The notes beneath the pieces are model-generated. The model was not told the origin of the DNA and did not search any database. It saw only the letters and a list, made by a program, of their open reading frames with translations. The translations under genes and the position numbers were made by a program. From positions 32,412-96,411 of the forward strand of contig JAIBAP010000014.1 of assembly GCA_019695115.1 (NCBI GenBank): a stretch of DNA of 64,000 nucleotides, in the 5' to 3' direction. Position 1 is the stretch's first letter. Every line of letters begins with the position of its first letter. Origin of the DNA: Caldilineales bacterium (GTDB lineage Bacteria; Chloroflexota; Anaerolineae; J102). Of this stretch, positions 61,106-61,173 are shown in pieces.

Positions 61106-61107
61106 AG

Positions 61108-61172
61108 CGTGAAACGTGAAACGTGAAGCGTGAGAACTGATGGCGTTTTCTCACGTTTCACGTTTCACGTCC
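61108..61172. terminator. Near-perfect 22-bp inverted repeat built from heptamer arrays (CGTGAAACGTGAAGCGTGAGAA ... TTCTCACGTTTCACGTTTCACG); candidate bidirectional terminator
   Basis: The arms have one mismatch and the loop is CTGATGGCGTT. The hairpin sits exactly between the convergent PLP-enzyme gene (ending 61105) and nfeD (ending 61174). Confidence 0.6.
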
Positions 61173-61173
61173 G

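Follow-up and report, generated by a model that had tools for sequence, protein, structure and literature searches.

In the window, which is the whole 64,000-nucleotide stretch of DNA that was analysed, a gene for a PLP-dependent enzyme on the plus strand and an nfeD-type gene on the minus strand converge on a gap of 68 bp (61106-61173), delimited by their stop codons (Table 1). The TGA stop of the PLP enzyme gene (61103-61105) lies within GCGTGAA, the first heptamer unit of an array of tandem repeats; the position of this stop is identical in the relative L073, and public gene calls concur with it. The TAG stop of nfeD occupies positions 61174-61176 on the minus strand. According to TRF, the left array consists of 4.9 copies of GCGTGAA (period 7, 92% matches, 61100-61133), and its loop-side unit is irregular and 8 nt long (CGTGAGAA). 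The right arm, when read on the minus strand, runs ACGTGAA ACGTGAA ACGTGAG AA immediately after the nfeD stop. It is a CGTGAAR array like the left arm and carries the same irregular 8-nt unit on its loop side (TTCTCACG). At the left the arrays include the PLP stop, and at the right they end 3 nt from the nfeD stop.

The first-pass annotation had described two complementary 22-nt arms with one mismatch and an 11-nt loop, filling the whole gap between the convergent genes. Both arms are present (61115-61136, CGTGAAACGTGAAGCGTGAGAA, and 61148-61169, TTCTCACGTTTCACGTTTCACG), and the coordinates of the arms and of the gap were borne out by the sequence and the list of open reading frames. One more A-T pair extends the stem to 23 bp, with 22 of the 23 positions paired, and the hairpin is separated from the stop codons on both sides by 4-9 nt. 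The lone mismatch (G61128/T61156) becomes a G.U wobble in RNA of the plus strand and a C/A mismatch in RNA of the minus strand. Folding of the RNA on both strands, which had been proposed as a check, gave a stable structure on each of them: plus strand, -49.6 kcal/mol (z -8.4); minus strand, -47.4 kcal/mol (z -7.8). The shuffled sequences reached approximately -23 kcal/mol, and none of them was as good (0 of 200). The element also folds stably as DNA (-31.3 kcal/mol, z -7.7). A sliding calculation of minimum free energy over the whole window was swamped by GC-rich coding sequence, and a scan of stem length was used instead; the longest stems in five shuffled windows were 11-12 bp, compared with 23 bp here.

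Given the head-to-tail copies of 7 nt (4.9 and 2.9, where the class calls for at least about 3) and the intergenic position, we assigned the element to the heptamer SSR arrays (long SSRs in the sense of Mrazek et al. 2007). The window contained no match to Rfam 15 at the gathering score. A search of Rfam by E-value returned sub-threshold matches to eukaryotic miRNA precursors only, which is a generic effect of long hairpins and was dismissed as meaningless.

Table 1. Positions of the convergent genes, of the parts of the hairpin between them, and of related and comparator elements in the window
Feature	Position	Strand	Details
Cys/Met-metabolism PLP-dependent enzyme gene	59636..61105	+	489 aa; Pfam PF01053 Cys_Met_Meta_PP, E 1.8e-83
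Left heptamer array	61100..61136	+	GCGTGAA GCGTGAA ACGTGAA ACGTGAA GCGTGAG AA
Hairpin 5' arm (plus strand)	61114..61136	+	23 nt; inverted repeat I11, 96% complementary; stem-length scan
Hairpin loop	61137..61147	+	CTGATGGCGTT, 11 nt
Hairpin 3' arm	61148..61170	+	TRF TCACGTT x2.9, 61151-61170, 100% matches
nfeD-type membrane protease gene	61174..62460	-	428 aa; Pfam NfeD_membrane, NfeD1b_N, NfeD; public gene calls
Decayed paralogous copy	21196..21253	+	~28 nt after stop of minus-strand gene 21281-22039 (DUF3782/PDDEXK_10)
Inverted GGAGATT/GGTTATT-type arrays	19672..19802	-	z -6.6; TRF, inverted-repeat and fold evidence
Non-heptamer comparator hairpin	47300..47352		21-bp stem, 11-nt loop; -49.2 kcal/mol, z -6.6

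A weaker inverted arrangement, which had been noted earlier at 21196-21250, is real and turned out to be a paralogous copy of the element (83% identity over ~80 nt). The two copies share an exact 19-mer (CGTTTTCTCACGTTTCACG; 0.02 expected by chance), which lies at 21229-21247 in the paralogous copy and includes the last four bases of the loop in the main element. The paralogous copy folds weakly (z -1.45), and its orientation relative to the stop of its gene is the same as that of the main element relative to the nfeD stop. A third and weaker match was found at 46389-46407, and the 19-mer had no match in the other loci or in viral contigs. The pair of inverted GGAGATT/GGTTATT-type arrays fills a 134-nt gap (19656-19789) between two genes for subunits of 2-oxoacid:ferredoxin oxidoreductase, which probably form one operon. 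The comparator hairpin, which is not made of heptamers, fills another convergent gap of 68 bp (47291-47358), and its geometry is nearly that of the heptamer hairpin. Long hairpins in the window concentrate within about 30 nt of stop codons.

We also noticed a perfect palindrome of 40 bp (AGGTGCGACGCACTTCGCGATCGCGAAGTGCGTCGCACCT) at 59490-59533, 10 nt after the stop of the ALDH gene. It is absent from the orthologous gap of L073, and the same arms are found in the public contig L163 with a 52-nt insert between them. This palindrome may be a dispersed element.

Heptamer arrays and their orientation

A strict search for period-7 arrays returned 13 in the window (65% GC), versus 0-1 for the periods 5, 6, 8 and 9. 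The full TRF catalogue comprises 22 arrays (including those at 9994-10100, 14806-14835, 46396-46450, 56335-56408, 58008-58052 and 59567-59610), which represent at least 10 heptamer families, many of them with a CGTG core. All 22 are located outside genes, and arrays were present in 12 of the 27 gaps that contain a stop codon, versus none of the seven divergent gaps (p = 0.036). The hairpin is one case of this wider feature of heptamer arrays in gaps containing stop codons.

Four gaps between 56.2 and 59.6 kb hold direct arrays. In three of them, those with the arrays at 57877, 58008 and 59567, a strain that is ~99% identical to the window differs from it by multiples of 7 nt (+7, +21, -7, -7). 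The arrays in the 56252 gap were rearranged on a larger scale, and the hairpin gap was unchanged. The orthologous gaps of L073 contain 1-2.5 copies of GTCGCAA, CACGGAA, ACGCAAC and CGTGAAG, where the window has 5-16. These comparisons demonstrate that heptamer arrays in this lineage expand and contract by 7-nt steps from short seeds.

Several other repeats were observed in the window. The (CGTGTTY)n and (CTCACGTTTCAC)n arrays at 56252-56445 are not reverse complements, yet they pair via their CGUG/CACG cores, and the fold predicted for them at -51.2 kcal/mol (z -4.2) is a periodic helix with interruptions. AT-rich inverted repeats of 9 nt (TCACGAATT and ATTCGTGTT) flank TTTTGATCAAAA at 46229-46323, in a 328-nt gap whose neighbouring genes are on the same strand. 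Approximately 34 degenerate copies of a hexamer (GGGGTG) at 38582-38787 lie inside the ORF 37948-39435 on the minus strand and presumably code for a dipeptide repeat, and tandem repeats of 21/42 nt at 21687-21796, in the DUF3782/PDDEXK_10 gene, encode a repeated motif of seven residues, DQRFEQV.

The strand on which an array lies follows the nearest gene end: arrays that follow a stop are G-rich in the sense strand (with GUG and UGA), and arrays that precede a start are G-poor and free of start codons. In the nine arrays closest to a start, ATG, GTG or TTG occurred 0 times on the sense strand versus 78 times on the antisense strand, and G made up 11% and C 41% of the sense strand. In the thirteen arrays closest to a stop the orientation was mostly reversed, with 34% G and 20% C in the sense strand (Fisher p = 0.0005 for orientation against the nearest gene end). 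The CGTGAAR family was in the sense orientation after stops in 4/4 cases and in the antisense orientation before starts in 2/2. For convergent gaps this rule by itself predicts an inverted pair, and selection for pairing need not be invoked. When the same heptamer family occurs after both stops, the two arrays become reverse complements, and the RNA of either strand is predicted to fold. Two arrays that are unrelated to each other lie in the convergent gap at 12507-12768, which has no long hairpin.

In related loci totalling 1.96 Mb, an inverted partner lay within 130 nt of 19 of the 72 heptamer arrays, versus 0.5% of permuted pairs. For the window alone the excess was not significant (3 of 18, versus 7.8% expected from shared families; p = 0.16), and the claim of enrichment refers to the wider set of loci and not to the window. 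In all ten of the independent inverted pairs that could be placed, six between same-strand genes and four in convergent gaps, it was the G-rich arm that adjoined the stop codon. Other Chloroflexota also have inverted heptamer pairs beside stop codons; three such pairs in convergent gaps (L063, L012 and L006) are each built of an unrelated unit. A (GATTGYT)n/(ARCAATC)n hairpin was found in one same-strand gap shared by three Anaerolineales MAGs (L035, 1593-1646; L042, 851-932; L063, 721-802). Its stems are 13, 26 and 32 bp long and the arms are still complementary, while the flanking coding sequences are 70-88% identical. In the hairpin of the window, the irregular loop-side unit common to both arms points to an inverted duplication or to copying from arm to arm, rather than to two independent expansions.

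The gap in other strains and in relatives

The gap sequence was unchanged, base for base, in six other assemblies that span it, five of them from other samples and one from the sample that also yielded a contig identical to the window; an assembly artefact is thus excluded. The spanning assemblies fall into two strain lineages, which are 99-100% identical, and a look-up of protein clusters returned only these two. The hairpin arms were identical in every assembly that cleanly spanned them. We did not take three substitutions in the left arm of contig L162 (GCA_026129265.1) for natural variation, since frameshifting indels interrupt the ALDH gene of that contig. Five public short-read contigs of the same species (L164, L165, L170, L171 and L181) terminate within the hairpin or immediately at it. 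Palindromes made of heptamer arrays break short-read assemblies at gene ends and are consequently under-represented in metagenome-assembled genomes. The contig L163 runs from a CGTGAAR array into unrelated sequence, which is either an assembly join via the shared array or a rearrangement. In L173, a contig of the same species that covers the flank past the end of the window, a perfect hairpin of 18 bp (ACAGACCTGTCAAGTTTT/AAAACTTGACAGGTCTGT) was seen at 5625-5662, 8 nt after the stop of a PALP gene and without a U-tract.

The nearest genomes are MAGs of Caldilineales (Chloroflexota). With L073 the window shares ~90% identity in DNA and 94% in the PLP protein. L073 has retained the PLP/nfeD gene pair, with a spacer of 131 bp and GAAGCGTGAGGCGTGAAGG soon after the stop, but this spacer folded into no hairpin (z -0.36 and 0.11). 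Because L073 is devoid of it, the heptamer hairpin must be younger than the split from L073. The more distant L081 (~81% identical) has also retained the gene pair, with a gap of ~70 bp, and carries at the orthologous position a GC-rich hairpin of 10 bp followed by UUUUC. The heptamer hairpin of the window occupies the site at which L081 has an ordinary terminator-like hairpin. A scan of metagenomes for closer relatives gave a best match of 84% identity and no intermediate between the window and L073.

Another hairpin of the window, which is not made of heptamers, has a different history. It has a stem of 13 bp, lies at 53942-53978 after the stop of a minus-strand gene (53987-54610), and is kept in the window, in L073 (~4590-4640) and in L081 (~1400-1450) with compensatory changes in the stem; on the minus strand the stem is followed by GYGUUUGCA, a tail that is conserved as well. 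This hairpin has the look of a terminator under genuine selection. Selected 3' hairpins can therefore be recognised in this lineage, and the hairpin at 61106-61173 does not bear that signature.

The region 62461-63466 comprises 1 kb without a called gene and is partly conserved in L073 (76%) and L081 (82%). A near-consensus promoter, TTGACA-17-TATACT, lies at 63115-63143 (+), and at 63424-63462 (+) a hairpin of 16 bp precedes CTTTTT. The region had no Rfam match even at E <= 0.1. We regard it as a candidate for an undescribed small RNA.

Known systems and possible role

Literature searches returned no description of such hairpins in Caldilineales. The closest precedent is provided by the inverted GGGAATC heptamer arrays of Xanthomonas, and the hairpin is of a known kind in a new lineage. 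Each Xanthomonas genome has 70-75 pairs of arrays on opposite strands, which are able to form stem-loops, adjoin or overlap stop codons and vary in length among related species; their role at transcript ends was examined by RNA-seq, and the G-rich heptamers of Xanthomonas and Nostoc have the same strand polarity as the arrays of the window (Rehm et al. 2015, PMC4692102). As in Xanthomonas, the arrays of the hairpin are intergenic, have a period of 7, present the same unit on opposite strands, lie close together and adjoin stops. The unit, however, is CGTGAAR instead of GGGAATC; it contains no run of three or more G, so the G-quadruplex open to the G-tracts of Xanthomonas cannot form. The host also differs, being a member of Chloroflexota with many heptamer families rather than one.

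The REP elements of E. coli act as mRNA stabilisers and partial terminators in 3' UTRs, including those between convergent genes, and their locations vary among strains (bioRxiv 10.64898/2026.03.23.713779). REP/BIME elements resemble the hairpin in being extragenic palindromes in 3' UTRs, between tandem as well as convergent genes, and in having no U-tract. In contrast to it, they form a single conserved family of ~35 nt that is present in hundreds of copies and is associated with a RAYT transposase, whereas the arms of our element are microsatellite arrays, with two copies and one weak match in the 64-kb window. Heptamer satellites and STRR repeats are known from other bacteria, such as the (GATAGRA)n satellite of Chloroflexus aurantiacus (PMC6749651), the heptamers of cyanobacteria, and the TAACTGA repeats of Beggiatoaceae and cyanobacteria, which are found mainly upstream of start codons and for which only one indirect repeat was noted (PMC4679880). 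These reports share with our findings the intergenic over-representation of 7-nt units, the lineage-specific units and a position tied to gene ends, but what they describe are mostly direct arrays and not inverted pairs.

With Rho-independent and bidirectional terminators the element has in common a hairpin right after the stops, which is shared by convergent genes, and its L081 orthologue has such a terminator. It differs from them in the lack of a U-tract or A-tract on either side and in its dimensions (stem of 23 bp with ~48% GC, loop of 11 nt). Typical terminator hairpins have a much smaller stem and loop. High-GC Actinobacteria possess long 'I-shaped' hairpins without a U-tract, located just after stop codons as here; their terminator activity is disputed, and they are not made of tandem repeats, unlike the present hairpin.

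The first-pass annotation had suggested bidirectional termination or stabilisation of 3' ends without a U-tract. The absence of a U-tract was confirmed on both strands, the plus-strand tail of the hairpin being CCGCUAUCCC and the minus-strand tail UUCACGCUUC. The proposed function was partly supported. The position next to the stops, the folding on both strands, the comparator hairpin in the second convergent gap of 68 bp, the hairpin of L081 and the recurrence of such pairs in other Chloroflexota speak for it. The lack of a U-tract, the lack of the hairpin in L073, the equivalents between same-strand genes and the orientation rule speak against it. Of the features of an intrinsic terminator, a stable hairpin lies directly downstream of the genes but the U-rich tract (about 5 U in 8 positions) is missing. 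A scan with the terminator consensus gave no site at the hairpin, and canonical terminator motifs were not enriched in the window (10 found versus 12.9 expected). Lack of a U-tract together with lack of motif enrichment makes a classical intrinsic terminator unlikely. Furthermore, equivalent hairpins stand between same-strand genes, both at 19656-19789 and in L035, L042 and L063, so these structures are not obligate or efficient terminators. On the sequence evidence, the case for a role of the hairpin in termination appears weak and its role in 3'-end protection plausible. The element is young and species-specific, and it is probably neither a conserved dedicated device nor a classical intrinsic terminator.

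Some 3' structure is to be expected at this site, because L081 has a hairpin there and the hairpins of the window cluster near stops. The reading we prefer, to which we give an even chance, is that of a recently formed CGTGAAR microsatellite hairpin in the shared 3' region, which would act in a REP-like manner as a barrier to exonucleases or as a weak terminator. The PLP and nfeD mRNAs would both run into the gap. By analogy with REP elements, the hairpin would block 3'-to-5' exonucleases and in this way set and protect both 3' ends, and RNA polymerase may in addition pause or, to a small extent, stop there, which would limit antisense read-through.

Alternatively, the hairpin may be a neutral by-product with no appreciable effect on the transcripts, in which slippage expands tolerated seeds and the orientation rule, or a chance inverted duplication, is all that accounts for the inversion. 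We consider this account possible but doubtful. It agrees with the fast turnover of the site (no hairpin in L073 and a different one in L081), the 7-nt polymorphism of arrays between strains, the inversion that the orientation rule predicts in convergent gaps, the lack of significant enrichment of inverted pairs in the window alone, and the two unrelated arrays of the 12507-12768 gap. Against it stand the inverted partners, ~50 times commoner than permuted pairs across related genomes, the persistence of one such hairpin with complementary arms in three species, and the irregular loop-side unit repeated in both arms; moreover, a 23-bp stem within a transcribed 3' region would hardly leave RNA decay unaffected. 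The hairpin could also be one copy of a dispersed mobile palindrome of REP or MITE type that happens to consist of heptamers. A transposase of the RAYT or IS200/IS605 type, for instance, might recognise the hairpin and spread it. We hold such spreading to be improbable. It would account for two copies 40 kb apart with 83% identity, an exact common 19-mer that reaches into the loop, and the third weaker match (46389-46407); both full copies closely follow the stop of a minus-strand gene and have a common orientation, and a separate palindromic element (59492-59531) has arms recurring in L163. Yet there are only two or three copies in about 72 kb, their similarity may stem simply from the shared heptamer family, the 19-mer is unmatched in other loci and viral contigs, and the CGTGAAG seeds directly after the PLP stop of L073 suggest that the left arm arose locally. 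None of the 16 window proteins scanned against Pfam was a transposase.

RNase III needs a duplex of ~20 bp, and a perfect duplex of 23 bp could be a target of this enzyme instead of a protective cap. Cleavage would then set the 3' ends or trigger decay of both convergent mRNAs rather than protect them. The stem does span two helical turns on both strands, and one report links heptamer repeats to an RNA element targeted by RNase III in Haemophilus influenzae (PMC12721329), but the decayed paralogue and the shorter stems of relatives (11-18 bp) would make poor substrates, and we judge this explanation likewise improbable. Least credible of all, in our opinion, is a role at the DNA level, with CGTGAAR iterons binding a regulator or nucleoid protein, or a cruciform affecting replication or recombination. 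The 12-mers resembling CTCACGTTTCAC do occur 20 times in the window versus 0.16 expected, the DNA hairpin is stable, and public assemblies often break at it. The motif counts, however, are explained by the tandem arrays, many unrelated heptamer families behave alike, and the orientation that tracks transcript polarity, together with the avoidance of sense-strand start codons, argues for constraints that act on the RNA.

The agreement of the orientation rule with the unrelated heptamers of Xanthomonas and Nostoc suggests a general RNA-level constraint across phyla. A broader proposal, which we regard as speculative and rather unlikely, is that the heptamer microsatellites of Caldilineales/Anaerolineae are not junk but constitute a transcript-level system of fixed polarity, with G-rich arms behind stops and G-poor arms lacking start codons ahead of starts, in which paired arrays give rise to slippage-born 3' hairpins independent of a U-tract. 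If so, bidirectional terminators or insulators would be born and turned over rapidly, within the lifetime of a species, and concerted evolution would keep the two arms complementary. As for the REP-like reading of the hairpin itself, if it sets or protects the ends of the two mRNAs, a genome prone to microsatellites would form 3'-end structures de novo and substitute them for older terminators, and such replacement would occur within the divergence of closely related species.
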